Source: an uncultured Calditrichaceae bacterium (GTDB lineage Bacteria > Zhuqueibacterota > Zhuqueibacteria > Oceanimicrobiales > Oceanimicrobiaceae). Taken from it: a stretch of DNA of 64,000 nucleotides. The notes beneath the pieces are model-generated. The model had not been told where the DNA came from. It did no database searches and saw only the letters and a program-made list of their open reading frames with translations. The first letter of the stretch is position 1; every line of letters begins with the position of its first letter. The translations under genes and the position numbers were made by a program. Below, one piece after another: positions 8,644 to 38,900 of this stretch. The stretch lies in NCBI GenBank assembly GCA_964455375.1, contig CAYVXE010000001.1:8201-72200 (forward strand). Direction: 5' to 3'.

Positions 8644-9882
8644 ATGTCTTACGAACTATTTATCGCGACGCGGTACTTAAAATCGAAACGTAAAACCGGA
8701 TTTATTTCTCTTATTACTTATATTTCCATTCTCGGCGTTACGATTGGTGTGGCTGCTTTGATTGTTGTACTGTCTATTATGAATGGATTTGAGAGTGAAG
8801 TGCGGGAACGCATTATCGGGTTTGGCGCGCATATCGAATTGCGAAAATTTCACAGTCAGGGAGTGGAAGATTACCAAAAATTAATCGATCAAATAAAAAA
8901 TATTGATCATATTAAAGGAATTTCTCCTTATATTAATGAGAAAGCTTTAATTATTTCAAAGTCGAAAAAATCAGGTTTGGGGGTTAAAGGAATAGATGCG
9001 AAAACCGTGTCGCAGGTGTCTGATATCAAGGACAATATTACCTATGGTGAATTCAATATTGGCAATGTTCCTTCGGACAGAAGAAAAACATATCCGGGAA
9101 TTATTCTCGGTGTGTACCTTGCGGACAAACTGGATGTGGATTTGGGTGATAAAGTAAGCATCCTGAGTCCCACGGGAATTTCACCGTTGATGTCGAAAAT
9201 TCCCGCGATGCGTACATTTGTCGTAACCGGTTTTTTTGAAACCGGAATATTTGAATTTGATGATGTTTTTGCGTATGTTTCCATTAAGGAAGCTCAGCGG
9301 CTCTTTGAAATGAAAGATAAGGTCACAGGTCTGGAAATAAAATTGGATGATCTGGACAAAGCAGACCTGGTGGCAAACAAGGTTGATCAGATTTTGGGCT
9401 ATCCGTATGCAACGGTTACCTGGTTTGAAATGAACAAAAATCTTTTTTCCTGGATGGAGATAGAGAAGTGGGGTGCGTTTATCATTTTAAGTTTGATCAT
9501 TATGGTCGCCGCTTTTAATATTGTTAGCACGTTGATCATGGTGGTATTGGAAAAGACCAAAGAGATCGGAATTTTAAAGTCCATGGGAGCGTCGTCATCC
9601 GGGATTTTAAAAATCTTCATGTTTGAAGGTTTAGTGGGTGGGGTAATCGGTACAATTTTGGGTTGTGTGATAGGCTATGGATTGTGCTGGTCGCAAATAG
9701 AATTCCAATATTTTTCGTTACCAGCCGATGTATATATCATTAACGCATTGCCTGTTTTGATGAAATTTCGCGATTTTATCCTGATATCAGGGGCGGGAAT
9801 TCTGCTCTGTTTTCTGGCCACCATTTATCCGGCCAGAAAAGCTTCTAAATTAGACCCGGTAGAAGCCATTCGTTATGAGTAG
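8644..9882 (+). CDS. lolE: Lipoprotein-releasing ABC transporter permease of the LolC/LolE (FtsX) family
   Basis: Four TM segments, a large periplasmic loop between TM1 and TM2, and a C-terminal FtsX-like region. It is translationally coupled to the following ATPase. Confidence 0.75.
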   Translation: MSYELFIATRYLKSKRKTGFISLITYISILGVTIGVAALIVVLSIMNGFESEVRERIIGFGAHIELRKFHSQGVEDYQKLIDQIKNIDHIKGISPYINEKALIISKSKKSGLGVKGIDAKTVSQVSDIKDNITYGEFNIGNVPSDRRKTYPGIILGVYLADKLDVDLGDKVSILSPTGISPLMSKIPAMRTFVVTGFFETGIFEFDDVFAYVSIKEAQRLFEMKDKVTGLEIKLDDLDKADLVANKVDQILGYPYATVTWFEMNKNLFSWMEIEKWGAFIILSLIIMVAAFNIVSTLIMVVLEKTKEIGILKSMGASSSGILKIFMFEGLVGGVIGTILGCVIGYGLCWSQIEFQYFSLPADVYIINALPVLMKFRDFILISGAGILLCFLATIYPARKASKLDPVEAIRYE

Positions 9883-10588: not shown

Positions 10589-11117
10589 TATGTTGTGCCA
10601 GTTGTGTAAAAAAAATTCAGCGACTGTAAAGATTTCATATATGATTGCAGATACCAAAAATGAAATCAGTATTTGTAAACAATGTGCCGAGAACAAAGGT
10701 ATCGATAATCCGGCAAACACATTACCAAAAATATTTGATAATTTTCTTGTGGAAATCCTTGGTCAGCAGCCAATCAGTAATTCCAAGTCGTCAAAGGAAA
10801 AAGGATGCACTGTTTGTGGTACGACGTGGGAATCTTTTCATCAAACGGGAATGTTTGGGTGTGAAAATTGCTACTCTATTTTCACGAAGGAATTGGATGT
10901 TCTCTTAAGACGTATTCATGGAAGCAACAAACACATTGGCAGCCGACCGCAATCGCAGCGCAGCAAAATCGATGCGTCTGAATTAAAGCAAATGCAAATG
11001 GAACTTCAGGAAGCGATTAAAAGTGAAAAGTTTGAGTTAGCAGCGGAATTACGAGATGTGATAAAAGACGCGCAGCGCGAGTTAAAGAAAAAAGAAAATG
11101 ATGGAATTTTACGATGA
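10581..11117 (+). CDS. mcsA: McsA-like activator of protein-arginine kinase, with Cys-rich zinc fingers and a UVR motif
   Basis: Three CxxC pairs (CQLCKK, CKQCAE, CTVCG...CENC) and a C-terminal UvrB/UvrC motif, ELAAELRDVIKDAQRELKK. It lies immediately upstream of mcsB. Confidence 0.7.
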   Translation: MCNMLCQLCKKNSATVKISYMIADTKNEISICKQCAENKGIDNPANTLPKIFDNFLVEILGQQPISNSKSSKEKGCTVCGTTWESFHQTGMFGCENCYSIFTKELDVLLRRIHGSNKHIGSRPQSQRSKIDASELKQMQMELQEAIKSEKFELAAELRDVIKDAQRELKKKENDGILR

Positions 11118-12223
11118 ATGGAAGAAAAACCCGGAAGCTGAAAGATTATACAGGCTCTTCGACTGATGTTTCCAAAACCATGAGTGAGTTGCTCTGGAAT
11201 TTTGGCGGCTGGCTTACGGATGAAGATGAATATTCCGATATCATTGTTTCCTCGCGCATTCGTCTGGCGAGAAATCTTAAAGGATTTCCCTTTCCTGCTA
11301 AGGCCTCAAAAAGAGATCTGTCATATCTTCTGACACAGGTTGAATCCGCATGCGAAAAATGTCCGAGTATGAAAAACGCAAATTTCATAAATATCAATAC
11401 ATTAGATGAATGGGATTGCCGGTATTTTGTTGAACGCCGGTTGGCCAGTCCGCAGTTTATCGAAAGTAATAATCCTTCGTTACTGGTCATTGGCCCCCGC
11501 GAAAATCTCAGCATCATGGTGAACGAGGAAGATCATCTGCGAATTCAGTGTATTGAGGCAGGGCTCGGTATCAAAGAGGCCTGGAAGAAAATAAGTACTA
11601 TCGATGATGAGTTGGAAGGGTTCTTGAATTTTAGCTATTCAAATCAGTATGGGTATTTAACCTCATGTCCAACCAATCTGGGAACTGGTTTACGAGTTTC
11701 GTTCTCGGTTCATTTGCCGGCCCTTTCCATGACGAAACAAATAAATTCGATTATTAAAAAATTACCGACCTCTGAAATCGCTGTTCGCGGTTTTTACGGT
11801 GAGGGCTCTGAACCCATCGGGAACATTTTTCAGATTTCGAATCAATTGACTCTGGGCAGGACTGAAACAAATATTATTGACAGGATGTTGTCCGTTGCTA
11901 TTAAGTTAATTGAGATGGAACGAAAAGAGAGAAAGAAATTATTAAATGAGCACCCGGCACGATTGGAAGATGCTGTTTTTCGGTCCATGGGAGTCCTGAA
12001 AAATGCCAGAATTATAAGCTCTATGGAAGCCCTGGATTTGCTTTCTTCTTTGCGTCTGGGGTGTGAGATGGGTTTGATTGAGGAAATAAACTCACTTGCA
12101 ATCAATCAATTGATGGTTTTAGTACAACCTGCTCATTTACAAAAAATATATAGGAAAGACTTAACCCCGGAAGAGCGGGATATTATGCGCGCAGATTTTA
12201 TCCGTCAGAATTTATATGCTTAA
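11114..12223 (+). CDS. mcsB: Protein-arginine kinase (ATP:guanido phosphotransferase family)
   Basis: The phosphagen-kinase active-site signature CPTNLGTGLR is present, and the length is about 370 aa. Confidence 0.8.
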   Translation: MNGRKTRKLKDYTGSSTDVSKTMSELLWNFGGWLTDEDEYSDIIVSSRIRLARNLKGFPFPAKASKRDLSYLLTQVESACEKCPSMKNANFININTLDEWDCRYFVERRLASPQFIESNNPSLLVIGPRENLSIMVNEEDHLRIQCIEAGLGIKEAWKKISTIDDELEGFLNFSYSNQYGYLTSCPTNLGTGLRVSFSVHLPALSMTKQINSIIKKLPTSEIAVRGFYGEGSEPIGNIFQISNQLTLGRTETNIIDRMLSVAIKLIEMERKERKKLLNEHPARLEDAVFRSMGVLKNARIISSMEALDLLSSLRLGCEMGLIEEINSLAINQLMVLVQPAHLQKIYRKDLTPEERDIMRADFIRQNLYA

Positions 12224-12300: not shown

Positions 12301-14793
12301 ATGAAAAATAATTTTTCCAGTCGGGTCCAAATGGTCATTCAGTTCTCAAGGGAGGAGGCGCTGCGATTGGGCCATGATTATATCGGAACAGAGCATTTAC
12401 TATTAGGCTTGATTCGCGAAGGCGAAGGGATCGCGGTAGAAATACTCCGTAATCTCGGATGCGATCTTGACGAGATTAAAAGATCCGTTGAAGATTCCGT
12501 GAAACCTTCCGGCGAAACCATGACGATTGGAAATATTCCATTTACGAAAAGGGCTGAAAAAATTCTCAAAATGGCCTACGTTGAGGCGGAAAAATATAAA
12601 TCTGATATCATCGGAACCGAACATTTGCTCCTTGCCCTTGTTAAGGAAAAAGATGGCGTTGCTGCTCAGGTTCTATTGAGTTTTGATGTCACCTACGAGA
12701 CCGTGCGGGAAGAGCTGGAGAATATCCTTCGGGGTGCTCCAACAGGACGGGAAGCAGCATCCCAGCAAAAAACCAAGACGCCGGCTTTGGATCATTTTGG
12801 ACGGGATTTAACCGAACTTGCCAGAAAAAATGAATTAGATCCTATCATAGGCCGTGATATGGAAATTCAGCGTGTTGCCCAAATTCTTAGCCGGAGAAAG
12901 AAAAATAATCCCGTTCTTATCGGCGAACCCGGTGTCGGGAAAACGGCAATTGCTGAAGGATTGGCGCTGCGCATTGTTGAACGGAAAGTCCCGAGAATAT
13001 TGCATAACAAGCGTGTTGTTACGTTGGATCTTGGAGCCATTGTCGCCGGGACAAAATACCGTGGTCAATTCGAAGAAAGAATGAAAGCGATCATGAATGA
13101 GTTGCAGCGGGCGAGGGATGTCATTTTGTTTATTGACGAGTTGCATACGATTGTTGGCGCTGGTGGTGCCTCGGGCTCATTGGATGCATCGAACATGTTT
13201 AAGCCCGCCCTGGCGCGTGGTGAACTCCAATGTATCGGTGCTACAACGTTGGATGAATATCGACAATACATAGAAAAGGATGGTGCTCTGGAAAGGCGTT
13301 TTCAAAAAATCATGGTTGACCCGCCCACTGCAGAAGAAACACTGCTGATTTTGGAAGGCCTTAAAGAAAGGTATGAACAGCATCATAAAGTGAAATTTTC
13401 GGACGAAGCCATTAGGGCTACAGTCAAGTTTTCTGAACGCTATATTTCCGACCGTTACCTCCCGGACAAAGCAATTGATGTTCTCGATGAAACCGGAGCC
13501 AGAGTACATCTGGCAAATATTGTGGTGCCTAAGGAAATTACGGAGTTGGAGGAACAGATTAAATCGGTTCGCCATGAAAAAGATTCGGTGATAAAGGCAC
13601 AGGAATTTGAACGGGCGGCTGTCTTACGGGATCAGGAAAAGCGGTTGAATCGCAAACTTGAAACCGCAAAGCGCCGTTGGAAGGATACGGAAGATGATTT
13701 TTTAGCAACGGTAACAGAAGAGGATATCGCCGATGTTGTCGCCATGATTACGGGAATTCCGGTGCAGCGGGTGGCAAAATCGGAATCAGAAAAAATTCTG
13801 GCAATGGAAGACGAGCTGAAAAAACATATCATCGGTCAGGAGGATGCATTGCATCTTCTGAGTAAAGCCATTCGCCGCACAAGAGCGGGCTTGAAAGATC
13901 CCAATCGCCCTATCGGTTCCTTTGTTTTTCTTGGCCCTACTGGAGTTGGAAAAACGCAATTGGCAAAGGAACTGGCGAGTTACCTGTTTGAGGATGAAGA
14001 TGCCTTAATCCGAATTGATATGTCCGAATTCATGGAGAAATTTTCCGTGTCGCGTCTGACCGGTGCTCCTCCGGGATATGTGGGTTATGAAGAGGGCGGA
14101 CAGTTAACCGAAAAAGTCCGGCGTCACCCGTATTCCGTTGTTTTATTTGATGAAATTGAAAAAGCTCATCCGGATGTTTTTAATATTCTTCTGCAGATTC
14201 TTGACGATGGACAGTTAACAGACGGCCTGGGACGAAAGGTTGATTTTAGAAATACCATTCTTATCATGACCTCAAACATTGGTGCCAGAGAAATTAAGCG
14301 GGGCGGTGGAATCGGTTTTTCTTTGGATAGCGATGAGGTGGACTATGACAATATGAGCCATAAAATTATGGATGAGATGAAGAAAATATTTAATCCCGAG
14401 TTTATCAACCGCGTTGATGAAATCGTGGTTTTTCATTCTTTGACAAAAGCCCATATGCTGAAAATAGTCGATATTGTTATTGAAGAGATGCTTCACAAAG
14501 TGCAGGATCGTGAAATCTTGATTCAATTGTCCAAAGGCGCCAAGGAATTCGTAGCGGAAAATGGTTTCGATCCGGTATACGGCGCACGTCCTTTAAGACG
14601 TACAATTCAAAAATTCATTGAGGATCCTATCGCAGAAGAGCTTTTGCGCGGTAAGTTTGCAGATGGCAGTCAAATATCCGTTAAGAAAAAGGGGGATAAA
14701 TTGGAGTTTGTCGAAACAAGCCGCAAAAAAATTGTATCTGATAAAAATAATAAAAGTATACAAAAGTCGAAAACGGAAGAAGTTGAAAAATAA
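12301..14793 (+). CDS. clpC: ATP-dependent Clp protease ATP-binding subunit ClpC
   Basis: Two Clp_N repeats (GTEHLLLGL and GTEHLLLAL), two AAA+ modules (GEPGVGKTA and GPTGVGKT), a short middle domain with a UVR-like motif, and a total length of 830 aa. Confidence 0.9.
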
Positions 14794-14992: not shown

Positions 14993-16147
14993 ATGCTGGT
15001 TTCTAAAGCAGTCATTAAAGCATTCAGGTCTATTTACGATTTCAAGATGCCTATCGACGCCAAAATAACTGTGTTAATCGGAGCAAATGAAAGTGGAAAA
15101 ACGAACACGTTGCGTGCAATCGATTCATTCAGGCCGGGACGTCCTTACTCGAGCAGCTTGACCTGCCAGTATTCCGATTATTATCATCAGGGGAAATGCC
15201 CGGAAGTAAGTTTAGAATTTACCAGTCTTTCAAGGGAAAATCGCAGAGCGTTGCTGCCATTGCATGAAGGATTTAAAGATGCAGAAACATTCATTGTGAT
15301 GAAAACCGGCGCTGAACTCAGCGATTACCATATCTATATTCGCAATGAAGAAGTACAGGTGAAGGATACGAAAAAGCTTTTGGATATACTCCCGAAGATT
15401 CTTTATTTTGATAACATTTCATTAATTAAAAGCAGAGTTGAGCTGGATACGTTGTTAAATGGGGATAAAAATTATTTAACTGAAAGGAACCTGTTAAAAA
15501 TTGGTGGCCTGCAAAATAATTATGAATTGATATTTGAGGATTCCACCCGAGGGCGCCGGGCGAGTGAAGAAGCCAGTCGCTTAATTACGCAGCAGATACG
15601 ACGTGTCTGGTCGCAGGAACCTACTATCGAAATTAAGTTGAATGTTAATGGCAAAGTGCTCTATATTGATGTTTCCGACGGAACCACTGTTTACGACACA
15701 CCGGAATCACGCAGTCTCGGGTTTCGCTGGTATCTATCCTTTTATATCAATTTTATTTCTCAAACATTTGAAGCAAAAGCGAACGAGTTTATTTTCCTGC
15801 TGGATGAACCGGGAATTCATTTGCATCCCGCCGGAATGAAAGACCTCACGAAAGTTATGGAAGACCTGGCGGTCAAGAACCAACTTCTCTACACCACGCA
15901 TTCACCTTTTATGATAAACCGTGAGTACCCCCAGCGTGTTCGACTGGTGAGCAAAGGACGTGAAGGAACTAAAATTGATTCACAGGCTTACCGGGATAAT
16001 TGGCGGCCACTTCGCCGTTCCATCGGTCTTATGATCGGTGATCTTTTTTTCTTCAATGACAGCAGCCTCATCGTCGAGGTACCATCCAAAAAAATTCCTT
16101 TTATGAAACGGTTGCAGATTTTTAAATCTGACGCTAGTAAAAATTAG
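14993..16147 (+). CDS. OLD-family / AAA_21-type ABC ATPase that lacks the usual C-terminal Toprim nuclease domain
   Basis: Walker A motif GANESGKTN, the ABC-signature-like SLGFRWYLSFY, Walker B motif IFLLDEPGIHLHP, and the H-loop TTHSPFMI. The ORF ends ...SSLIVEVPSKK..., about where OLD-family proteins begin their Toprim domain (LVEGxTE). Confidence 0.7.
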   Translation: MLVSKAVIKAFRSIYDFKMPIDAKITVLIGANESGKTNTLRAIDSFRPGRPYSSSLTCQYSDYYHQGKCPEVSLEFTSLSRENRRALLPLHEGFKDAETFIVMKTGAELSDYHIYIRNEEVQVKDTKKLLDILPKILYFDNISLIKSRVELDTLLNGDKNYLTERNLLKIGGLQNNYELIFEDSTRGRRASEEASRLITQQIRRVWSQEPTIEIKLNVNGKVLYIDVSDGTTVYDTPESRSLGFRWYLSFYINFISQTFEAKANEFIFLLDEPGIHLHPAGMKDLTKVMEDLAVKNQLLYTTHSPFMINREYPQRVRLVSKGREGTKIDSQAYRDNWRPLRRSIGLMIGDLFFFNDSSLIVEVPSKKIPFMKRLQIFKSDASKN

Positions 16148-16150
16148 ATA

Positions 16151-17122
16151 ATGACTCCCCAAAGAAAATCCATTTGTGACGTGCCCGGCTTAAACGTCGG
16201 TCATGCGCAAAACGATGTTGCAAAAACCGGTTGTACGGTCATTCTACCAGAAAACGGCGCTGTGGGGGGCGTTGATATACGTGGTTCTGCTCCCGGTACG
16301 AGAGAGATAGAAAGTTTGCATCCTGTTCGCCTTGTACCAAAGTTGAATGCGATTTTGTTAACCGGGGGAAGTGCCTTCGGATTGGACGCTTCCAGCGGTG
16401 TGCAGCAATTTTTGGAGGAAAAGGGAATTGGTTTTGATGTTGGGGTGACTAAAATTCCCATCGTACCAGCTGCTGTGATCTTTGATCTTCGGGAAGGCGA
16501 CTATCGGATTCGGCCTGATAAAGAGATGGGTTATGCAGCGGCATCGCGGGCTGCTAAAAGCCACCCTGAAGAAGGGCGAGTCGGCGCCGGCAGAGGGGCG
16601 ACTGTAGGAAAAATCCTCGGGCAGGAATACTGCATGAAAGGTGGAATCGGGACCTGGAGTGAAAAAGTAGGCGATATTACTTTGGGAGCTTTGGTCGTTG
16701 TTAATGCTTTGGGGGATATTTTTCAGCCAATGACAAATACCAAATTGGCCGGTGCAGTGAATCCAAAAACCGGAAAATTTTACGATACCATGCAGCATTT
16801 GCGCAAAAATCCCCCGAAATCTTTCGACCCATCCACCAATACTACGTTGGCCGTCGTTGCCACCGATGCCCAACTCACAAAAGAACAAACCATTAAACTT
16901 GCTCAAATGGCACAGGACGGATTGAGCAGAACCATCAAACCCGCGCATACGCCGTTCGATGGGGATATCGTTTTTGCGCTCTCTGTTGGTGATAAAGATG
17001 ATGTAAATATTACTGCTCTGGGGGCCATTGCAGCAGAGTTGGTTGCCGAGTCTATTGTTAGAGCGGTGAAAATAGCCAACGGGATGGTGAAAAAGTCTGA
17101 ATTAAATGAATCTTCATGCTGA
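16151..17122 (+). CDS. P1-family (MEROPS S58, DmpA/OAT-like) self-processing peptidase/aminopeptidase
   Basis: Recognised as P1 family from the autoproteolytic-site-like motif GTNTTLAVVATDA and a Gly-rich alpha/beta fold. It starts 4 nt after the ATPase stop. Confidence 0.75.
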   Translation: MTPQRKSICDVPGLNVGHAQNDVAKTGCTVILPENGAVGGVDIRGSAPGTREIESLHPVRLVPKLNAILLTGGSAFGLDASSGVQQFLEEKGIGFDVGVTKIPIVPAAVIFDLREGDYRIRPDKEMGYAAASRAAKSHPEEGRVGAGRGATVGKILGQEYCMKGGIGTWSEKVGDITLGALVVVNALGDIFQPMTNTKLAGAVNPKTGKFYDTMQHLRKNPPKSFDPSTNTTLAVVATDAQLTKEQTIKLAQMAQDGLSRTIKPAHTPFDGDIVFALSVGDKDDVNITALGAIAAELVAESIVRAVKIANGMVKKSELNESSC

Positions 17123-17262: not shown

Positions 17263-19212
17263 TTATTCTAATTTTTTCCCAAAGATTTTGATAATTCCCA
17301 CAAGAAGAACCGTTCCAAGTATAATTGAGAAGAGTGTATTCATTCCCCAACCTACGGGCAGGTAGGCCACGACCATTGCAATAAGTCCTACAGTGACAGC
17401 ATAAGGTAGTTGTGTCTTCACATGATCGATATGGTCAGCGGCTGACGCCATGGAAGAAAGGATGGTTGTGTCTGAAATTGGTGAGCAATGATCGCCGAAA
17501 ACCGAGCCTGAGAGAACAGCACCTATGGTACCCAGTAAAATATGATGACTCAGAGCTGCACTCATACCGGCTTCTATAGGAAATTTATATCCCATAGGAA
17601 TAACGATAGGGGTGAGAATTGCCATGGTTGCCCAGGATGCACCTGTAGAGAAACTGATGATTGCGGCAACGGCAAACGTCACCAGAGGCACTAAATGAGC
17701 TGATAAAATCCCTTTACTCAGATGGATGACATAATCAGCGGTATGCAAATCTTTACAAATATCGCCAATCGCCCAGGCTAAAATTAAAATCATAGCGGCT
17801 AAAATCATGGATTTGTAACCGTTAATTGCCGATTCGATAATTTGTTGTAAAGACAGAATTTTCTGCCCGATTGCCAAAAGTGCTGCAAGGAAAAGTCCGG
17901 TGAAGGATGCCCACATGAGAACATGGAAGGAATTAGCGGCACCAAAAATAGTTCCGAAATGGACATTTTGTGCTGTTGCTCCCAGGGCAGATTTTCCGCT
18001 GAAATACAAGCCGAAAATGGTCACAAGAATGACAATGCTGATGGGTATGAGAGCATTGTACCACTTTAACGGTGTCCCTTCGTCGGCAATCATATCCAGG
18101 GTTGAACTGTCGGCGATAGGCCGGGCACCATCTCGTAAAACCTTCCCTGTGAGTGCTGCTCGTTTTTCCGCGGCCAGCATGGGACCGAAATCCATCAACA
18201 GAATGCCGATGACAAAAACAAAAATAAGCGCTAATATGCTATATGTTGAATAGGGAATCGACTCGATAAATGTTTTGTAAGGGCTTAATGTCAGTCCTAT
18301 GGTTTTAAAGGCCTGATCGATTAATCCTACCTCGAATCCAATCCAGGTAGATATGATCGCAATGGATGCAACCGGTGCGGCTGTGGAATCCACGATATAG
18401 GACAATTTTTCCCGGGAAATTTTTAGTTTGTCGGTAAAAGGTCGCAGCGTGTTTCCCACAATCAGTGTGTTTGCATAGTCATCGAAAAAGATAAAAATGC
18501 CCATTGCCCACGTTGCCAGAATGCCGCCTCTGCGGTGGTTGGCGTGTTTGGATAATTTTTCTACAATCCCCTGAGTTCCTCCGGCTTTTGATATAATGCC
18601 CACCATACCGCCTAGCGTCATACTGAAGATGAGAATTGCGGCATGGTCGGGATCGGCCAGAGAATGAATCAAATAGGAATCGATTGTCTTCATGAATCCA
18701 ATGAACGGATTGTAATCATAAACGAAAATTGCACCTAACCAGATTCCGCAGAATAGGGAGATCAGTACCTGGCGGGCCATGAACGCCAATAGAATGGTCA
18801 CTAATGGCGGTAATAAGCTTAAGAGACCTGGGATAACCCTTATAGTTGTATCTGCAATCAACCCGTCAGATTGAATGGTAATGAGATGTTGTCCGGCTCC
18901 CTCTACACGAACGTCTTTCATTGAAATGGTTCCGTTGTGAAGCACGAGGCGATGCAGATCGGGAATGCCGCTCACGTGCAAGGTGTCTGTGGCGGTGTTA
19001 ACCAGGATACCGTTTTTGTTCAGAGCATCCACCCGCAGTTCGAAATCGACGCCATTTAGAATCAGATTCGGAGTGGTTATTTTTAGTTTGACAACATTAT
19101 CGGTCGGCGTTTGAGTTGTTGTGGCTGGTTGCTCGGCATTTGATTGAGCAAAGGAATTTGTCGGCAACAGATAAAACCATAAAAGTGTGATCAGAAGTGA
19201 GAATGATTTCAT
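17263..19212 (-). CDS. nhaC: NhaC-family Na+/H+ antiporter, with an N-terminal signal peptide and an extracytoplasmic beta-rich domain of about 120 aa
   Basis: A signal peptide is followed by a T/N-rich beta domain and then 11-12 TM helices of NhaC type (ANTLIVGNTLRPFTDKLKISREKL...). Confidence 0.8.
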   Translation of the reverse strand: MKSFSLLITLLWFYLLPTNSFAQSNAEQPATTTQTPTDNVVKLKITTPNLILNGVDFELRVDALNKNGILVNTATDTLHVSGIPDLHRLVLHNGTISMKDVRVEGAGQHLITIQSDGLIADTTIRVIPGLLSLLPPLVTILLAFMARQVLISLFCGIWLGAIFVYDYNPFIGFMKTIDSYLIHSLADPDHAAILIFSMTLGGMVGIISKAGGTQGIVEKLSKHANHRRGGILATWAMGIFIFFDDYANTLIVGNTLRPFTDKLKISREKLSYIVDSTAAPVASIAIISTWIGFEVGLIDQAFKTIGLTLSPYKTFIESIPYSTYSILALIFVFVIGILLMDFGPMLAAEKRAALTGKVLRDGARPIADSSTLDMIADEGTPLKWYNALIPISIVILVTIFGLYFSGKSALGATAQNVHFGTIFGAANSFHVLMWASFTGLFLAALLAIGQKILSLQQIIESAINGYKSMILAAMILILAWAIGDICKDLHTADYVIHLSKGILSAHLVPLVTFAVAAIISFSTGASWATMAILTPIVIPMGYKFPIEAGMSAALSHHILLGTIGAVLSGSVFGDHCSPISDTTILSSMASAADHIDHVKTQLPYAVTVGLIAMVVAYLPVGWGMNTLFSIILGTVLLVGIIKIFGKKLE

Positions 19213-22060
19213 GTTAAGTACTTTGGGTTTGGATGTGAAAGTTGACGATTATTATAAAAAATTGTTATCAGAAAGTAAAGAAGAAATTTCTGCGAGCCCA
19301 TTAAAGCTTGATTTTTCAGGATATTTTGTTAAATTGAATCAACTTTTACAAATAGTTCAGGCTAAAATACTATCTCATTTTCAATTACCGACCATGCTTT
19401 TTCCCACAAGATCGTTTCGAAATGACCTGTTAGTCCGACTCCTTATTTTTCTTGTCGCGGGATTTTTTATCCATGCAAACAATCTTCTGGGAGAGGATTG
19501 GACGTCTGAATATTTTCACCGGTCAAAGGAGGCGTCTCAACTTGTCCAGTATCAGCATCGTTATGTGGGAGCTACCCGCCGTCTTGTAAATTTAAACGGT
19601 GAATGGCAGGTGCGGAAAGTCGATGAAGATGCATGGCACGCTGCCTGGGTTCCGGGCGCTTATAGTTTCCAGGGTGATGTTGAGTACAAGCGTACCTTTC
19701 AAATTGATTCCAGTTTTGTGGGTAAGCACCTGCAACTCATCATCTGGGGAATCAATAACCGCTGTCAGATATTTCTAAACGGTGAATTTTTACAGAGCCA
19801 CAGTGGAGGCCGCACGTCATTTGCCGTCGACATCAGTGAAAATCGAATTCATCATGATTCCCCGAATGAAATCCGTATCATCATTCAAAACAAATTACTT
19901 TCCAAAAGCAGTGTCCCGTTAAGTTTCCCTCCCCGGTTTAGTAGAAATTACGGCGGTATTTTTCGTGATATTTTTGTTTTAGCCACGCCGGTAAGATATG
20001 TCCGGGATTTGAAAATAAGCCAGCAATTTGATACGAACTTTACAAATTGTCGCCTTAGAATAAAATCCATACTGGCTAATTTTTATGACGACATTGAGGG
20101 TGCAGGATCAAAAACATTTACCATTCAAAGTGAAGTCTGGGACATCCGAAAAAACGAGCGCATAGCTGTTACAAAAAAACGGCCGGTGCTATTTGAAAAG
20201 AGATTTTTGACTTTGGTTGACAGTTTAAGTATTCAAGGTGTGGACCTCTGGAGTCCGGATCATCCGAACTTGTATGAAATGCGGACGATTTTGTCTGATT
20301 CAAAGGGAATTCTTGATCGACTGCACCGGCGTGTTGGGTTCAAGGATCTGACATTTGAGAAATCTGTTTTGTTAAATGGTAAAAAGCTGCAGATAAAGGG
20401 GTTCGATTGGATTGATGATTTTCCAGGAATAGGGACAACTGCCGGGTGGAAAACGCTTAAAGCGGAGATTCAAGCAATTAAGAGCACCGGTGCAAATGCC
20501 ATTCGGATTATGGAAGGTGCACCGCATCCTTATTTTCTTGATTTGTGTGATGACGCGGGTTTATTGGTTTTTGAACAAGCACCATTATTTATGCTTCCGG
20601 ATACGCGGCTCAGAGACCTGTCTTTTGACGAGTTACTGGAAAACACATATAATGAGATGCTTGAGCGGGATAGCTGGCACACGTCATTCGCTGCATTGGG
20701 AATTGGAACTGATCTGCAGTTAGATTCTCCTTATACGAGGGATTTCTTTGCTCGTTTTGAAAAAAAAGTGGCAGGGCAGCAAATTGCACTATTTGTAGCA
20801 AGTAGATTTATGCCGCCGGCGCCCCTGCCGGATTTTATTGAGTTTAACTTTGTCGAACTTCCGGGTAAGATGCCAGAGGCAATCCTGACCTTTATTAAAA
20901 ATTATCAAACTTATTTTGAGGAAACGCCGGTGATCCTTTCGGTGGGGCAACCGGTTCGCAGTAAGGAGATTGAGTCGGATACCGGCCAACCTCAGAATAT
21001 ACGCCGCGGCCAATTTAAAAAATATTCTAAATCAGTTAAAGTTGAGGAATTGCAGGCCTATACGTTAAACCGAATTTTGACGGATGTCAACCAAACAGGA
21101 CGAGCAGCGGGGAGCATGATATTCAGTTTTGCTGATTGGCAATCGGGGCGGCCAAACTTAGTATTTGGCGGGGATCAAGATGATTTTTTGATTAAAACCG
21201 GCATCGTGAATCGTCATCGTGAAAAGCGTATCGCTTTTAACGTGGTGAAGAATTTGTTTAAGGCATATCAGCCCATTCGCATGTCGGTTAAAGTGCCGGT
21301 TAGGAAAAATCCAAACATTTATCCGGTTGCCGGTATTTTTTTGATTTTGGTTTTCCTGTTTCACTTTAATCGTAATCGAAAATTCCGTGGAAATCTTAAT
21401 AGGATTTTCGTGTATCCGCATGGATTCTATATTGAATTAAGAGAAAACCGTAAAGTGCAGGGCATGCACACCTTATTGCTGAGTTTTGTTATTTGTACCG
21501 CGTTAGGCATTGTTCTCTCAAGCATTATATATCATTTTCGACAAGACCTTCTTTTCGACGAGCTCCTTAATCTTTTTTTTCAGTCCCGCAATATCAAGAA
21601 ATATGTTATTGGGATGCTTTTGCAGCCTTTTACGTCAATTTTAGTGCTCACTTTTTTGTGTTATCTTTGGTTTACGGGCATTGTTGTAACTTCAATATTT
21701 GTTTCAAGAATATTGGGACAAAGTGTTCGCTGGAGTCAATTTTTTACCCTCGCCTTCTGGAGCGGTGCCAATTTTGTCTTGCTGCTGCCGTTAGTTCCGA
21801 TTTATTACAGGACGCTGAATTATCCAAATTTGACCATACCGGTAATAGCGATTCTGTTTGGTTTCGTAATATGGTTTGCCATTCGATTATTCCGCAGTTT
21901 ACATATTATGTATATGTTGACAATGGTACGGACGATTATATTGGGAATAACTATGTTTGTCGTGGTGTTTGGCAGCGTGGCCTGGTATTTTGAAGAAAAG
22001 TACGCTGCACTCGACTACCTGAAAATTTATTTTAAAATTATTCGAAGTTTTATAAGTTGA
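19187..22060 (+). CDS. GH2-like ectodomain, probably catalytically inactive, fused to a C-terminal polytopic membrane domain
   Basis: The N-terminus matches the GH2 sugar-binding domain (WHAAWVPGAYSF...RNYGGIFRDIFVLATP, compare LacZ WRMSGIFRDVSLL). The start of the TIM barrel (ANAIRIMEGAPHPYFLDLCDDAGLLVFEQAP) is followed by ALGIGTD where GH2 enzymes carry the acid/base motif (LacZ has SLGNESG there). Eight or nine TM helices occupy the last 300 aa. The true start is probably an internal Met such as MLFPTRSF..., because the listed start overlaps nhaC. Confidence 0.55.
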   Translation: MIRSENDFMLSTLGLDVKVDDYYKKLLSESKEEISASPLKLDFSGYFVKLNQLLQIVQAKILSHFQLPTMLFPTRSFRNDLLVRLLIFLVAGFFIHANNLLGEDWTSEYFHRSKEASQLVQYQHRYVGATRRLVNLNGEWQVRKVDEDAWHAAWVPGAYSFQGDVEYKRTFQIDSSFVGKHLQLIIWGINNRCQIFLNGEFLQSHSGGRTSFAVDISENRIHHDSPNEIRIIIQNKLLSKSSVPLSFPPRFSRNYGGIFRDIFVLATPVRYVRDLKISQQFDTNFTNCRLRIKSILANFYDDIEGAGSKTFTIQSEVWDIRKNERIAVTKKRPVLFEKRFLTLVDSLSIQGVDLWSPDHPNLYEMRTILSDSKGILDRLHRRVGFKDLTFEKSVLLNGKKLQIKGFDWIDDFPGIGTTAGWKTLKAEIQAIKSTGANAIRIMEGAPHPYFLDLCDDAGLLVFEQAPLFMLPDTRLRDLSFDELLENTYNEMLERDSWHTSFAALGIGTDLQLDSPYTRDFFARFEKKVAGQQIALFVASRFMPPAPLPDFIEFNFVELPGKMPEAILTFIKNYQTYFEETPVILSVGQPVRSKEIESDTGQPQNIRRGQFKKYSKSVKVEELQAYTLNRILTDVNQTGRAAGSMIFSFADWQSGRPNLVFGGDQDDFLIKTGIVNRHREKRIAFNVVKNLFKAYQPIRMSVKVPVRKNPNIYPVAGIFLILVFLFHFNRNRKFRGNLNRIFVYPHGFYIELRENRKVQGMHTLLLSFVICTALGIVLSSIIYHFRQDLLFDELLNLFFQSRNIKKYVIGMLLQPFTSILVLTFLCYLWFTGIVVTSIFVSRILGQSVRWSQFFTLAFWSGANFVLLLPLVPIYYRTLNYPNLTIPVIAILFGFVIWFAIRLFRSLHIMYMLTMVRTIILGITMFVVVFGSVAWYFEEKYAALDYLKIYFKIIRSFIS

Positions 22061-22185
22061 TGCTGGTTGTATGATTCAGGTCAGCTTGCCTGTTTTTCAC
22101 GTCTGCATTTATGACAATAATATTATTTTTTCGTCTAACCTAATGATTTATAATCGGTGTTCTGTATTTTCCTCAAAAAAAGCGC

Positions 22186-22214
22186 TTGACTTTTGTTGAA
22201 TATTGGTCTATATT
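22186..22214 (+). promoter_or_regulatory. Sigma-70 promoter: TTGACT, 17-nt spacer, TATATT. It sits upstream of smc.
   Basis: The hexamers were read directly. The site lies in a 260-nt AT-rich gap, about 105 nt upstream of the smc GTG. An SD sequence, AGAAGG, precedes that GTG. Confidence 0.5.
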
Positions 22215-22318: not shown

Positions 22319-25300
22319 GTGTATTTAGATGGTATTTCAATTCACGGATTTAAGTCGTTTGCAAAAAAAACACAGATCAATTTTAACAATGGAATCACGG
22401 CGGTGGTGGGCCCTAATGGCTGTGGTAAAAGTAACATCGTCGATGCGATCCGGTGGGTTTTAGGAGAGCAAAAAGCCGGCTCAATTCGCAGCGAGAAAAT
22501 GGAAAATGTGATTTTTAACGGTACCCAAAATATAAAACCTCTCGGAATGGCTGAAGTATCTTTAAAAATACACAACACAAAAAATGTTTTACCCATCGAA
22601 TATTCGGAAGTACTGATTACCCGACGTTTATTCAGATCAACTGAAAGTCAGTATTTATTGAATAATAGTCCTTGTCGCTTAAAAGATATTCAGGATTTGT
22701 TCATGGATACGGGTATGGGAGTCAATGCTTATTCTATTATAGAATTAAGTATGATAGAAACTATTCTTAACGGCAAGCCGGAAGAGCGGCGAAAAATAAT
22801 TGAAGAAGCTGCCGGCGTCACAAAATATAAACTGCGTCGTAAAGCTGCATTTCGGAAACTGGAGGCCACTGCGGCAGACCTTGTTCGTGTAAATGATATC
22901 ATTAGCGAAGTGGAAAAAAATGTTTCTTCACTGCAAAGACAAGTAAGAAAGGCGAGAAGATATCAGGAGTTCAGTGAATTGTTGAAAGAGGATGAAATCA
23001 AGTTAGCCACTCACAACTATTCAAAAATATTGTTTGAACTTGACCCCCTGACTGAAAAACTGAAAGAAACTCAAAATAGTCGTGTGGAACTGAGTACGGT
23101 TTTCGATGAAAAGGAATCTGAAATTGAAGAGGGTCGCCGCCAATTACTTGATTTGGAAAAGCGACTGAGCGCGGAGCAGAAAGCATTAAATAGTTTTGCC
23201 TTGAAAATCCAAAAGCAGGAAGAACAAATTCTGGTTGCACGTGAACGACGCAAGGCTTTGGAAACGGCCAAAGAAAGGTTGAAAAGAGATAAAGGAGAAC
23301 TTCATGAACGAGTGGATAGAAATAAAAGTCAGCTTTTAGCCTCAAAAGAGGAGGTTCAGCAATTATTTGCAAAAATTCAACTCGCTGAAAACGATTACCA
23401 GGAGAAGAACTCGGCGCTTAAGAAAATAGAGCTGCGCTTTCAAGAAAAAAACGATTCCTTGAAGAGTCTCGAAAATCAGCGTTTGCAGGCTGTCGAAGGT
23501 TTGACGGACAGTAAGAAAGAAGAAGAGCGTATTAAAACACAGCTTGAAAATATCGAGGAGCGTGAGAAAGCAATCGACCGCCAGCTTGAGGAATATGAGC
23601 TTCTGTCAAAAATCAGAGCTGACAAGTTAGAGAAGACAGTTGACAGGAAATCGGAAAAGGAAGCTGTTCTGCGCAGGAAGGCATTTGAGAAAAAGAAACT
23701 CCTTGCTAAAATTGAAACTTTGACTAAACAAAAAGAGCAGATCAAAGAGACAATTTTACAGCGAAGAAGCGAAATTCAGACTCTTAAAGAGCGCATTGAA
23801 TTGTTGAGGAAGTTTTTAGAGTCGTATGAGGATCATCCAGAAGGCGTGCAGCATCTTATAAAGGAAGGCTATTTGAACGGTGGCTATAAGGGTACGATTG
23901 CAGAAGTTTTATCCGTTGATGAAAACTATCGCTATGCCATCGAGACGGCGCTTGGCGACGCAGCCGTTTCGTTGGTTGTAGAAAATACGGATCAGGCGCT
24001 GAAATGTATCGACGTGCTCAAATCCGGTGAAAAGGGGTCTGTAACGTTTTTTCCTCTGGATAAAATTCATGTGACGAATGGCGCTAACACCAAAGATATC
24101 AATCCGGAACAAACCGAAGGCATGGTTGATTGGGCGTACAATCTCGTACAATGTCGCGATGACTATAAACCTTTGATTCGTTCTTTGTTGTATGACTATA
24201 TTATCGTTAAAGATTTGGCTGTGGCCAGGCAATATGCAGACAAGATACAGGATAAGCGTATTAATTTAATTACGTTAAATGGAGAAATTTACTCGACTTG
24301 GGGTCCCATCAGGGGGGGCGGAACCGCAAAGCAAGGCGGTATTGTGGGCCGAAAAGAGTTAGTCAAAAAATTAGAAAAAAAACTGCAAAAATCCTCGAAA
24401 ATGATCCAGGATGATGAATCGCTTCTACAAACGGTGGAGCAAAATTATAAAAAGGCGTTTGAAAAGGGACAGGCGTTGTCCTCTGAAATAAAATCTCTGG
24501 AATCGAATGTAAATGATTTAGATGTTAAACAAGCCCAATTAAATTTTGAAACCAAGAAGGATGCTGAAGTAATAGAAAGACTGAGCCAGGAAAAACAAGC
24601 ACATCGTACTAATAGAGAACAATTACATAAGAAGTTCCGGACAATTGCACCGTCTCTAAATGATTTGCAGGAAAATAAATTCAAATTTGAAGTTGACCAT
24701 AAGCGTATTTCCGAGGAATTAGCCGGATTGGAAGATGACATAAGGGAACATCGTGAAATTGAGCAGGACAGCCGGGTTATGCTCGTTGATCTTAAAGGTC
24801 AGGAGCGGCATCTTCAGGAAAATATTTCAAAGTTGATTGACTATCAAAGAGAGTTGATAAAATCTCAGGAGCGAATTACTCAAGAAATTGAATTTACCTC
24901 CAGGGAATATGTGGAGCTTGAAAATCAGATTGAAATAAATAAGAAAAATATTCAGGTCGATTTCGAACAACACCAGGTGTTAGAGTCTAAAGTGCATGAT
25001 CTTGAACAGACTTATTTTAAGCAGAAGGAAATTCTCGAGGAGAAAGAAAAAAAGGTAAAGAAGATCCGGGAAGAGCGCGATATGGTTTCGGAATCTTTCC
25101 ACGGCATAGAATTGCGTGTGTCGGAGTTGAAGCACAATAGCGAAAAGATAAAAGAAATGATCGAGGAGGAGCACGACGTCGGGATTTCACGGCAACAGAT
25201 CGATGAAAACCTGGACGAGTTGGCATTGACGGCTAACATCGAATCTCTGAAAAATAAGTTGAACTCTATGGGGCCTGTGAACCTCCTGGCATTAAAGGAA

Positions 25301-25876
25301 TATGATAAAGAAAAATCCCGGTTTGAATTTTTGCAGACACAAAAAAATGATTTGATCGAAGCGGAGAAGAATCTCAACGAAACCATTCATGTGATCAACA
25401 GAACCGCACGGGACAGGTTTGAGAGTGTTTTTGAGCAGATACGGAAAAATTTTATTCAGGTATTTACCGGGTTTTTTGAAAACGGCCAGGCGGATTTGAA
25501 ATTAGGACCAGGTGCTGATCCCCTTGAATCGGATATCATCATCGAGGCTGACCCTAAGGGAAGAAAAATTGCTGCAATATCCTTGCTCTCAGGCGGCGAA
25601 AAGACGTTAACAGCGATTTCTTTGCTATTTGGTATTTATTTAGTCAAACCCAGCCCGTTTTGCATTCTGGATGAAGTAGACGCACCACTTGACGATGCCA
25701 ACATTCAAAGATATGTAAAGGCTATTCGCAAGTTTTCGGAAAACACGCAATTTATTGTCGTGACTCACAACAAACTGACCATGCGGGAAGCTGATTGTCT
25801 CTATGGCATCACCATGCAGGAAGAAGGCGTCTCAAAAGTCGTCTCAGTAAATTTTCACGAAATGGAATTGAATTAA
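22319..25876 (+). CDS. smc: Chromosome segregation protein SMC
   Basis: N-terminal Walker A motif VVGPNGCGKSN, long coiled-coil arms interrupted by a hinge, C-terminal signature motif LSGGEKTLTAISLLFGI, and Walker B motif FCILDEVDAPLD. Confidence 0.9.
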   Translation: MYLDGISIHGFKSFAKKTQINFNNGITAVVGPNGCGKSNIVDAIRWVLGEQKAGSIRSEKMENVIFNGTQNIKPLGMAEVSLKIHNTKNVLPIEYSEVLITRRLFRSTESQYLLNNSPCRLKDIQDLFMDTGMGVNAYSIIELSMIETILNGKPEERRKIIEEAAGVTKYKLRRKAAFRKLEATAADLVRVNDIISEVEKNVSSLQRQVRKARRYQEFSELLKEDEIKLATHNYSKILFELDPLTEKLKETQNSRVELSTVFDEKESEIEEGRRQLLDLEKRLSAEQKALNSFALKIQKQEEQILVARERRKALETAKERLKRDKGELHERVDRNKSQLLASKEEVQQLFAKIQLAENDYQEKNSALKKIELRFQEKNDSLKSLENQRLQAVEGLTDSKKEEERIKTQLENIEEREKAIDRQLEEYELLSKIRADKLEKTVDRKSEKEAVLRRKAFEKKKLLAKIETLTKQKEQIKETILQRRSEIQTLKERIELLRKFLESYEDHPEGVQHLIKEGYLNGGYKGTIAEVLSVDENYRYAIETALGDAAVSLVVENTDQALKCIDVLKSGEKGSVTFFPLDKIHVTNGANTKDINPEQTEGMVDWAYNLVQCRDDYKPLIRSLLYDYIIVKDLAVARQYADKIQDKRINLITLNGEIYSTWGPIRGGGTAKQGGIVGRKELVKKLEKKLQKSSKMIQDDESLLQTVEQNYKKAFEKGQALSSEIKSLESNVNDLDVKQAQLNFETKKDAEVIERLSQEKQAHRTNREQLHKKFRTIAPSLNDLQENKFKFEVDHKRISEELAGLEDDIREHREIEQDSRVMLVDLKGQERHLQENISKLIDYQRELIKSQERITQEIEFTSREYVELENQIEINKKNIQVDFEQHQVLESKVHDLEQTYFKQKEILEEKEKKVKKIREERDMVSESFHGIELRVSELKHNSEKIKEMIEEEHDVGISRQQIDENLDELALTANIESLKNKLNSMGPVNLLALKEYDKEKSRFEFLQTQKNDLIEAEKNLNETIHVINRTARDRFESVFEQIRKNFIQVFTGFFENGQADLKLGPGADPLESDIIIEADPKGRKIAAISLLSGGEKTLTAISLLFGIYLVKPSPFCILDEVDAPLDDANIQRYVKAIRKFSENTQFIVVTHNKLTMREADCLYGITMQEEGVSKVVSVNFHEMELN

Positions 25877-37238: not shown

Positions 37239-38900
37239 TTGAAGGTAAAAGCACGTTGTTTGTTTTTGGCTATAATGCTGTTTTGGTTAAATTTGGCCGC
37301 CGGTACCATTAGCGGGCAACTTACTGTTGATACGCTCAAAGTGGCTGATAGTCCAATCAGCGTGATTGGAAATATTTCCGTACCTTCATGGCATACGTTG
37401 ACCATTGAACCGGGGGTCATTTTAAAGTTTGACGCCGGTTTAAGTTTTACAATTGATGGCACGTTGAATGCTGTGGGAACTGAAGCCGATTCAATTTTCT
37501 TTCACTCTAATGCGGCCACTCCGCAGAGTGGGGATTGGTCCGGTCTGATCTTTAATACAGCCAGTGCTGGTTCTTTACATTATTGCAGTATTAAATATGC
37601 AAGTGTGGGTTTAACAGAAAATAATGCAACTTTTGAAATCAAATCTTCAACATTTTCCAAAAATACAAATGGGATTGATTGTCGCAATGGTAGTGCACCC
37701 GTCATTCAGTTGAACACGTTTACTGCCAATGAAAATACTGCCATTCGTTGTACGGATTCAAGTCCTTCGATTCTTCAGAATAAATTTTTAAATAACGTGT
37801 CTGTTTCTTCCACGATTTTATGTCAGAATTCTTCACCGACCATCAGTCAAAATCTAATCAGTCGCAATTTGAATGAGGGAATTTCCTGTGTCAACGGTTC
37901 CAAACCGAATATTTGGCAAAATACGTTTTATGATAATAATTTGGGTATTGCGGTTAACGATTCATCGGGACCCATCATCAAAAATAATATCATCATCGGG
38001 AATAAACAGTTCGGTGTTGCGGTGATTGATACCTCAGCTACGGAAGTAATCGAATATAATGATGTTTGGGGAAACGAGATTTCCGAATTTGTCGGCACGG
38101 ACGTATCCGTTGGTAATTTGACTACGAGCAACAGCAATGGCCATGCATCTGATGTTCATAACAACATCAGATTGAATCCGGTATTTGTGGATACTGCTGC
38201 GGGTAATTTTCATCTTCTTGTCGCTTCGCCTTGCATCGATGCAGGCGATGCCGCCAATCCTGCCGGCATTACTTTTTGGGGAAATGCACCAGATTTAGGA
38301 GCTTATGAGTATGATGGTGCGCTGCCAGTGGAGCTGGTTTCGTTTCGAATAGTGGACAGGAAATTAATCTGGACAACCGCTACCGAAACGAATAATTTTG
38401 GCTTTGAGGTGCAAAGAAGAAGCGAAACTGAGCAGCATTTTCAAAGGGTGGCGTTTATCCCCGGCGCCGGTACGACGTTAGTGCCACAGCATTATGAATA
38501 TGACGAATCAGATATTTTCGGAGTTTATTTTTACCGCTTAAAGCAAATCGATACGGATGGAACTTTTTCATTCAGCGATATTCTCAAAGCGGCGTTTTCG
38601 GAGGTTAACTCATTTGAATTGTATACAAATTATCCGAATCCATTTAATCCGTCAACGACAATTTCGTTTCATGTGCCGTTCAATCGTAATCGTGAACCGG
38701 TTTCATTAATATTGTCAATTTTCAATATAAGGGGAGAGCAAATTGTTACCCTGTTGGATGACAAAAAGGTGCCTGGAGAATATAAATTAAATTGGCGCGG
38801 TGTCGATAATTTAGGTAATCCGGTAGCTTCCGGAGTTTATTTTTATCGCTTAAAAATGGGCGATAATGTCCTGTCAAAACGAATGCTTTTGTTGAAATAA
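37239..38900 (+). CDS. Secreted right-handed parallel beta-helix repeat protein with a T9SS C-terminal sorting domain
   Basis: A signal peptide is followed by repeated segments of about 22 aa (N.F..N...I.C.NGS.P.I..N.F..N) typical of pectate-lyase-like beta-helices. The C-terminal segment of about 80 aa (...YTNYPNPFNPSTTISF...SGVYFYRLKMGDNVLSKRMLLLK) looks like a T9SS type A sorting domain. Confidence 0.7.
   Translation: MKVKARCLFLAIMLFWLNLAAGTISGQLTVDTLKVADSPISVIGNISVPSWHTLTIEPGVILKFDAGLSFTIDGTLNAVGTEADSIFFHSNAATPQSGDWSGLIFNTASAGSLHYCSIKYASVGLTENNATFEIKSSTFSKNTNGIDCRNGSAPVIQLNTFTANENTAIRCTDSSPSILQNKFLNNVSVSSTILCQNSSPTISQNLISRNLNEGISCVNGSKPNIWQNTFYDNNLGIAVNDSSGPIIKNNIIIGNKQFGVAVIDTSATEVIEYNDVWGNEISEFVGTDVSVGNLTTSNSNGHASDVHNNIRLNPVFVDTAAGNFHLLVASPCIDAGDAANPAGITFWGNAPDLGAYEYDGALPVELVSFRIVDRKLIWTTATETNNFGFEVQRRSETEQHFQRVAFIPGAGTTLVPQHYEYDESDIFGVYFYRLKQIDTDGTFSFSDILKAAFSEVNSFELYTNYPNPFNPSTTISFHVPFNRNREPVSLILSIFNIRGEQIVTLLDDKKVPGEYKLNWRGVDNLGNPVASGVYFYRLKMGDNVLSKRMLLLK

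Follow-up and report, generated by a model that had tools for sequence, protein, structure and literature searches.

Glycoside hydrolases of family 2 (GH2), such as the beta-glucuronidases and galacturonidases of Eisenbergiella tayi (6ncw) and Ruminococcus gnavus (5z18/6jz4), are built on a core of a jelly roll, an immunoglobulin (Ig)-like domain and a TIM barrel. Proteins of the Yip1 family (PF04893), among them the eukaryotic YIPF proteins and Bacillus subtilis YknW, have a multi-helix bundle that follows a cytosolic segment. YknW is a modulating fourth component of the YknXYZ transporter and modulates its assembly (PMC4338810). Glycosidase folds also occur as membrane-anchored ectodomains with no known glycosidase activity, as in 4F2hc and rBAT, the SLC3 heavy chains associated with heteromeric amino-acid transporters (PMC8537225). 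Here, we describe a gene, GH2-Yip1, which joins a GH2 ectodomain to a Yip1-like membrane domain. It lies in a stretch of 64,000 nucleotides from an uncultured Calditrichaceae bacterium (contig CAYVXE010000001.1, positions 8,201 to 72,200), which we call the window.

The open reading frame (ORF) at 19187..22060 (+ strand, 957 aa) encodes a GH2 fold that has lost its catalytic dyad, followed by a multi-pass membrane domain, much as the first-pass annotation of this DNA had proposed. Both parts are borne out by Pfam, by the match to 6ncw, by a Foldseek search, by hydropathy and by structural modelling. The known kind to which the protein belongs is the glycosidase-fold pseudoenzyme, and GH2-Yip1 is a widespread and mis-annotated representative, since its relatives are labelled beta-galactosidase or GH2 in databases. 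Literature searches returned nothing relevant on a GH2-Yip1 fusion or a GH2 membrane pseudoenzyme. From the evidence below we infer a scaffold or adaptor role, a topology and an envelope function. We tentatively read the protein as a periplasmic scaffold without catalytic activity that is linked to an adaptor of the Yip1 type, with a role in envelope maintenance and not in sugar catabolism, and consider this reading plausible.

Pfam matches in the ORF cover GH2_N (residues 130-268), the GH2 Ig-like domain (271-386) and GH2_C (392-467) with E values of 1e-10 to 1e-11. The closest sequence match in the PDB, found with phmmer, is the beta-galacturonidase 6ncw (E 1.7e-28, residues 155-692). The NCBIfam beta-galactosidase and beta-glucuronidase models align with residues ~110-510, far under their cut-offs. 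An AlphaFold2 model, built from 42 family sequences (pLDDT 87, pTM 0.85), matched three-domain GH2 beta-glucuronidases in Foldseek (E ~1e-39, target-normalised TM-score ~0.8 over ~620 columns). GH2 homology is thus far above chance, and Pfam and Foldseek together recover the complete core of jelly roll, Ig-like domain and (beta/alpha)8 barrel:

19577..19990 (+): GH2 N-terminal jelly-roll ("sugar-binding") domain, residues ~131-268, with NYGGIFRD at its C-terminal end (PF02837, E 3e-10; beta strands in the model).
19991..20350 (+): GH2 immunoglobulin-like beta-sandwich, residues ~269-388 (PF00703, E 6e-11; model).
20351..21271 (+): complete GH2-type (beta/alpha)8 TIM barrel, residues ~389-695 (eight model strands; 6ncw alignment to residue 692; Foldseek).
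20966..21031 (+): insertion in the barrel, residues ~594-615, probably disordered (pLDDT <50 at model residues 525-546).

The first-pass annotation had recognised GH2 similarity in the N-terminal 500 aa, up to the start of the barrel. That part stands; the similarity, however, does not end there but takes in the whole TIM barrel to about residue 695. PF02836 aligns with only the first 80 of its profile positions in the query and nearly in full in relatives (e.g., positions 2-294/302 in P0024). The charged insertion follows right after the former nucleophile strand and is confined to the close clade, as it appears in the alignment only in the query and in P0002-P0012. The weakest third-position bias of the gene also falls around it, in the 100-codon interval of residues 570-669.

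The core is the same as in the E. tayi and R. gnavus enzymes, at 17-21% identity, and the motifs YGGI.R, LWSP..P.LY, GAN..R, LDLCD..G and F.D are common to GH2-Yip1 and canonical GH2 proteins. Unlike the canonical enzymes, GH2-Yip1 lacks the catalytic NE and TE.G motifs and other active-site residues. It is also predicted to be exported and tethered to the membrane by a C-terminal domain of 260 aa, and its gene context is housekeeping, not catabolic. The two former catalytic positions are the following:

20708..20713 (+): T508-D509, where canonical GH2 enzymes have the acid/base Asn-Glu, at the end of barrel strand 4 (LacZ and L-INS-i alignments).
20939..20941 (+): S585, where canonical GH2 enzymes have the nucleophile Glu, at the end of barrel strand 7 (L-INS-i alignment; model strand 513-518).

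When 23 family members were aligned by L-INS-i with 12 canonical GH2 sequences, the acid/base Asn-Glu lay opposite T508-D509, and the nucleophile motif [ST]-E-x-G (TE[VIY]G) lay opposite L-S585-V-G. The phmmer alignment to Escherichia coli LacZ stops exactly at E461, which corresponds to residue 509. Both alignments agree with the earlier observation that the protein reads ALGIGTD at the acid/base site. Intact glutamates, which were to be looked for as evidence of an active enzyme, were not seen: the acid/base Glu is replaced by D509 and, in addition to what the first pass had noted, the nucleophile Glu by S585.

We then took a census of these positions in 151 full-length family representatives. 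Not a single one had Glu at both (0/151). The acid/base Glu alone was found in 12 sequences, with the Asn-Glu motif in one, and the nucleophile Glu alone in 27, while 77 of the 151 had neither Asp nor Glu at either site. The loss extends to the supporting residues, as the family shows variation or substitutions in columns that the 12 canonical sequences keep. Affected are the NNKG loop, the Asp that stands before YGGI, the HYP His, the N.Y..WY Tyr and the W.F.D Trp; we take the roles of these motifs to be those in E. coli GUS and LacZ. What the family does conserve in the ectodomain is mostly Gly, Pro, Asn and Trp with a few Asp and Arg, and several of these residues sit in the motifs common to canonical GH2. 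We conclude from the alignments that the GH2 module is in all probability non-catalytic. Because the -1-subsite motifs beyond the two glutamates are not conserved in the family, we also conclude that the old sugar pocket has probably not been kept as a binding site.

The membrane domain, residues 696-957, was modelled separately (pLDDT 90.8, pTM 0.87). Hydropathy and the model agree on one transmembrane (TM) helix, two short helices in a basic segment, five further TM helices and a C-terminal amphipathic helix. There are therefore six TM helices besides the N-terminal secretion signal, and not the eight or nine counted in the first pass:

21317..21373 (+): TM helix 1, residues ~711-729, predicted to run from outside to inside (hydropathy; model helix 16-34, pLDDT >90).
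21377..21460 (+): basic juxtamembrane segment, residues ~731-758, predicted to be cytoplasmic (two short model helices; conservation).
21461..22003 (+): five-helix Yip1-like bundle, residues ~759-939 (PF04893 matches in relatives; model).
22007..22060 (+): C-terminal amphipathic helix, residues 941-956, and stop codon (model helix 246-261).

The basic segment is the most conserved part of the whole protein, with a mean top-residue frequency of 0.62 versus 0.17-0.43 elsewhere. Its family consensus reads RRFRENLxR...P.NFF.DIRDQR. R739 and, further on, R900 are invariant within the family, and F747 and R755 reach 0.98 and 0.97. The segment probably lies in the cytoplasm, because the ectodomain ahead of TM helix 1 is exported and because its 8 Arg/Lys residues fit the positive-inside rule.

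The Pfam Yip1 profile (PF04893) matched 19 of 42 full-length relatives (E<=0.01) and 20 of 28 isolated membrane domains (E<=0.1), with a top E value of 2.7e-8 over profile positions 3-171 of 173. Two relatives, P0012 (34.3 bits) and P0006 (29.5 bits), exceeded the gathering cut-off of 28.6 bits over positions 2-172 of 173. No rival Pfam family appeared in the membrane domains, and NCBIfam gave no matches for them. As in Yip1 proteins, a five-helix bundle follows a cytosolic N-terminal segment, with the orientation predicted from the signal peptide and the positive-inside rule. GH2-Yip1 differs from that family in having one more TM helix and a periplasmic domain of ~600 aa ahead of the bundle, and no Rab-type or membrane-fusion-protein partner is evident for it. 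The family makes up a tight cluster by itself, found only in this fusion. A DLYGP-type motif, which we presume from the Pfam description of Yip1 to precede the first helix and treat as a lead only, is absent from query residues 696-957. The family has a motif of its own in the cytoplasmic segment, P.(N/G)F(F/Y).(D/E)(I/L)R(D/E).R.

The fusion of the two parts is genuine and conserved. We found 41 full-length homologues with the same architecture (22-83% identity, 800-950 aa). A profile of the membrane domain, searched against 1.84 billion representatives, matched 615 proteins, 453 of them at E<=1e-30; the best 150 matches were mostly ~850-900 aa long with the domain at the C-terminus. Of 186 family proteins examined, 179 were informative, and in all 179 the GH2 part lies directly upstream of the membrane domain, so the conservation among relatives that had been put forward as a check is confirmed. 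Shorter matches proved to be N-terminally truncated fragments whose first residues already fit the GH2 ectodomain profile, and no other architecture was found. A separate observation concerns P0153 (845 aa), in which the membrane domain is central (341-582), the GH2 part is truncated at its N-terminus and ~260 extra residues are present at the C-terminus; this may be a read-through or fusion with the downstream gene, or a gene-calling artefact. Named sources of the family are Calditrichaeota/Caldithrix, candidate division KSB1, Ignavibacteria and Kryptoniota metagenome-assembled genomes (MAGs), and a profile of the close-clade alignment found 11 loci in genome contigs.

The gene is under purifying selection yet evolves clearly faster than its neighbours. 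Measured against the 83%-identical orthologue at locus L021, its ratio of non-synonymous to synonymous substitution rates (dN/dS) is 0.21 overall (jelly roll 0.15, Ig 0.22, TIM barrel 0.23, membrane domain 0.23), whereas NhaC has 0.11, SMC 0.09, the S58 peptidase 0.07 and the AAA_15 ATPase 0.035. The jelly roll, with the lowest value, is also the best-conserved part of the ectodomain (0.43). Identity to the L001 orthologue is 44% for GH2-Yip1 versus 71-86% for the neighbours.

The reading frame is open up to the TGA at 22058-22060, and its 5' end needs correction. The N-termini of the 41 homologues align with M70 of the ORF, where the signal-peptide-like segment starts; a signal-like N-terminus stands at this position in all of them, and some end in lipobox-like ...FSC or ...FAC. 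In comparison with the L021 orthologue, the 61 codons 5' of M70 have substitutions of [8,4,6] per codon position, i.e., no third-position bias, and 3 synonymous versus 12 non-synonymous codon changes. The remainder of the gene has [92,63,204], with 159 synonymous and 147 non-synonymous changes. Promoter-like sites of both divergent genes, at 19345-19373 (+) and 19279-19251 (-), lie inside 19213..19393. Taken together, the homologue N-termini, this codon signature and the promoter-like sites make ATG 19394 the most likely start, which gives a probable protein of 888 aa. The cleavage site of the secretion signal is a prediction from the letters only.

19187..19393 (+): 5' extension, residues 1-69, most likely untranslated and contributing to the divergent promoter region 19213..19393.
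19394..19477 (+): M70 as the probable start codon, with the N-terminal secretion signal MLFPTRSFRNDLLVRLLIFLVAGFFIHA (hydrophobic residues 80-98; homologue N-termini).

A start at 19394 leaves a divergent intergenic region of 181 bp to the NhaC gene. The overlap of the two starts on opposite strands, reported in the first pass, is a product of choosing the longest ORF. We reject it on the same three lines of evidence.

On either side of the gene lie the following features, of which the divergent NhaC-type neighbour had been noticed before and is indeed present:

17263..19212 (-): NhaC-family transporter, 649 aa, divergent neighbour (Pfam Na_H_antiporter, E 1e-61).
22077..22100 (+): weak terminator-like hairpin (5-bp stem) followed by a T-run, just past the stop codon.
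22319..25876 (+): smc, 1185 aa, downstream neighbour and the most widely conserved linkage of the family.

The smc gene is the next one downstream, on the same strand, in the window, in L001 and L021, in Ignavibacteria (L004/L006), in Kryptoniota (L005), in Calditrichaeota CLD2 (L017) and in the P0038 lineage (L020). In L004-L006, the two genes abut (1-8 bp), although their upstream neighbours differ. In L008, L010-L012 and L014, a gap of ~1.3 kb separates GH2-Yip1 from smc; in L012 it holds a gene for a multi-pass membrane protein of 312 aa (8874..9812, - strand), AEC-type-transporter-like by sequence. Downstream smc is missing in the P0014, P0030, P0035 and L007 lineages. In the window, a promoter-like site at 22186-22214 precedes smc, and together with the terminator-like hairpin between the genes it suggests that smc may have its own promoter in this genome. 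Further downstream of smc lies lpxB, and tpiA is found upstream in some loci. No carbohydrate-active enzyme or polysaccharide-utilisation genes were found in any family locus examined.

The NhaC protein carries a signal peptide and an N-terminal extracytoplasmic segment of ~100 aa, and neither Pfam nor the PDB gave a match to its N-terminal 132 aa. Long NhaC proteins of this kind are common, at 52-75% identity, in Calditrichota, KSB1, Acidobacteriota, Gemmatimonadota and Myxococcota. Every Calditrichota/KSB1-type locus of sufficient length had the divergent NhaC/GH2-Yip1 pair, as did the P0014 locus, which is rearranged. No NhaC was found within 6-8 kb of family members in Ignavibacteria, Kryptoniota, CLD2 and other lineages, and the long NhaC of Gemmatimonadota and Myxococcota (52-55% identity) has no GH2-Yip1 neighbour. 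Both observations weaken the case for NhaC as an obligate partner.

We propose that the protein would be exported by its N-terminal signal and that the GH2 fold would then remain tethered to the inner membrane, facing the periplasm. The tether would consist of TM helix 1, the conserved basic cytoplasmic segment and the five-helix bundle. The GH2 module would not hydrolyse glycosides; its most likely use would be that of a rigid scaffold or docking surface in the periplasm. The Yip1-like domain with the cytoplasmic loop would be the part that matters most to selection and, by analogy with YknW, could be an adaptor by which another complex of the membrane or envelope is organised or modulated. 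We favour such a scaffold or adaptor over sugar sensing because the cytoplasmic face is under the strongest constraint and the old pocket has been dismantled. A role in envelope maintenance is suggested by the housekeeping context, with smc, lpxB and sometimes tpiA but never polysaccharide-utilisation genes.

Several observations weigh against this proposal. The query membrane domain alone gives no PF04893 match, and the matches of the family are near the threshold. Against the PDB, the fold search with the membrane domain returned nothing below E = 1 and the profile search nothing significant; since this fold has no solved relative, the analogy with YknW rests on a distant family assignment. 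Asp occupies the acid/base position in 31 of the 151 sequences, the query included. Finally, a new, non-canonical ligand site may exist elsewhere on the ectodomain.

The linkage to NhaC in Calditrichota/KSB1 invites another explanation, namely that GH2-Yip1 is a "heavy-chain-like" accessory which docks on the divergent NhaC and stabilises or regulates it through the N-terminal periplasmic domain of the latter, in the manner of 4F2hc and rBAT with SLC7 transporters. Apart from NhaC, no large gene lies on the minus strand in this part of the window, and the pair is kept both in all sufficiently long loci of that clade and in the P0014 lineage, whose protein is 29% identical and whose other neighbours all differ. 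The bacterial Yip1 protein YknW is itself a transporter accessory, and 4F2hc and rBAT place glycosidase-fold ectodomains on transporters (PMC8537225). The SLC3 chains, however, have a GH13 (alpha-amylase) fold where ours is GH2, are eukaryotic and use a single TM anchor, while GH2-Yip1 has six helices. Their likeness to GH2-Yip1 is best regarded as an analogy of design and not as homology. A six-helix domain with a conserved cytoplasmic loop far exceeds an anchor, and the pairing with a transporter gene is neither family-wide nor reciprocal, given the members without NhaC nearby and the long NhaC proteins without GH2-Yip1. We therefore consider this explanation unlikely for the family. The earlier idea of a transporter accessory survives insofar as the NhaC pair is conserved in Calditrichota/KSB1-type loci, but its absence elsewhere makes it lineage-specific at best; an accessory role limited to this clade is possible. 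The ectodomain could also be a lectin-like sensor whose dead GH2 pocket binds a specific sugar and reports across the membrane. Dead glycosidase folds can serve as lectins, e.g., the chitinase-like lectins; the GH2 fold with its "sugar-binding" jelly roll is under purifying selection, and a Glu after strand 3, D650 and G672 are still conserved. We regard this as decidedly unlikely, as nearly all canonical -1-subsite residues vary freely, Pfam and NCBIfam scans of the protein found no signalling output domain (kinase, cyclase or helix-turn-helix), and the family loci have no sugar-utilisation genes nearby. The sugar sensor or lectin-like anchor suggested in the first pass thus finds little in the other -1-subsite motifs to rest on.

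An active membrane-bound glycosidase with non-canonical catalytic residues, such as D509 as the acid/base, would account for the Asp retained in the close clade (31/151), for an intact barrel under purifying selection and for the database labels. It is improbable, as S585 offers no carboxylate at the nucleophile position, no member has both glutamates and the nucleophile-supporting Tyr motif is gone. Moreover, the only well-conserved acidic residues, D377, D552 and D650, lie off both catalytic positions, and at least the columns of D552 and D650 are Asp in most canonical GH2 sequences as well. The linkage to smc raises the idea of a functional partner of SMC, whose conserved cytoplasmic loop, the most conserved segment, ties chromosome organisation to an envelope site set by the periplasmic module. 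In its favour, smc follows immediately in Ignavibacteria, Kryptoniota, CLD2 and the P0038 lineage, where GH2-Yip1 is 24-26% identical to the query and the other neighbours differ, and the genes abut (1-8 bp) in three loci. On the other hand, the adjacency is lost in the P0014, P0030, P0035 and L007 lineages; in L012 an opposite-strand gene interrupts it, and in L008, L010, L011 and L014 there is an equal gap of ~1.3 kb. The terminator-like and promoter-like sites make the pair not clearly operonic in this genome, and smc operons often include unrelated housekeeping genes. We find such a partnership very improbable. Taken to its full extent, the idea would make GH2-Yip1 the ancestral operon partner of SMC in Calditrichota, KSB1, Ignavibacteriota and Kryptoniota, with the invariant loop contacting the chromosome-organisation machinery and the ectodomain reading or anchoring to a periplasmic or cell-wall landmark. 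This is a long shot, which if true would couple chromosome segregation to the envelope. The chance that an assembly or annotation artefact has joined two genes by a frameshift, a concern voiced in the first pass, is negligible. The alignment across the junction has no gaps, every segment carries a coding signature, and the 151 full-length representatives from independent assemblies together with all informative fragments rule it out.

Compared with the first-pass annotation, the Yip1-like membrane domain, the most-conserved cytoplasmic loop and the linkage to smc are new. Automatic labelling of relatives as beta-galactosidase or GH2 inflates inferences of carbohydrate degradation for MAGs of Calditrichota, KSB1, Ignavibacteria and Kryptoniota, and the mislabelling touches at least 450 sequence clusters. 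GH2-Yip1 is a large, conserved bacterial case in which an enzyme fold has been repurposed as a non-enzyme tethered to the membrane, and it gives the prokaryotic Yip1-like domain a defined and conserved fusion context. A core envelope function in these phyla is suggested by the housekeeping genes around GH2-Yip1, which itself usually lies upstream of smc.

The window as a whole is a housekeeping region that also includes a cluster of type IV pilus genes. Its genes include those for release factor 1, alanine racemase, lysyl-tRNA synthetase, a Lol-like ABC transporter, McsB/ClpC, the AAA_15 ATPase, the S58 peptidase, NhaC, GH2-Yip1, smc and pilD. An Rfam scan of the window gave no matches. Among ORFs of >=150 aa, 44 of 46 are on the + strand, and GC skew is positive throughout; the whole window therefore seems to lie on one leading strand.

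Upstream of NhaC, an AAA_15/SMC_N-type ATPase (14993..16147, +) and a DmpA-like Peptidase_S58 (16151..17122, +) lie close together as a pair. Their conservation is very strong (dN/dS 0.035 and 0.07, respectively), and most Calditrichota/KSB1-type loci that extend far enough upstream show the two genes in synteny. An McsB-like ATP:guanido phosphotransferase (11114..12223, +) stands directly 5' of a ClpC-type AAA+ chaperone with a UVR motif (12301..14793, +); the arginine-phosphorylation/Clp module is best known from Firmicutes, and here it occurs in a genome with proteins sorted by the type IX secretion system. Near the start of the window, a 663-aa ORF (161..2152, +) without a Pfam match is followed by a CHASE2-adenylate/guanylate cyclase gene (2453..4591).

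Proteins with sorting domains of the type IX secretion system (T9SS) also occur in the window, which is consistent with a diderm of the FCB (Fibrobacteres-Chlorobi-Bacteroidetes) group. Downstream of the type IV pilus genes, one gene (37239..38900, +) codes for a beta-helix protein that carries a T9SS C-terminal sorting domain, and the next (38907..41639, +) for a protein of 910 aa containing 7-8 Big_1/Invasin_D3 repeats. Finally, a 1147-aa ORF without a Pfam match (53389..56832, +) lies immediately before a POTRA+Omp85 gene (56842..58629, +), and the two may form a TamB/TamA-like pair.

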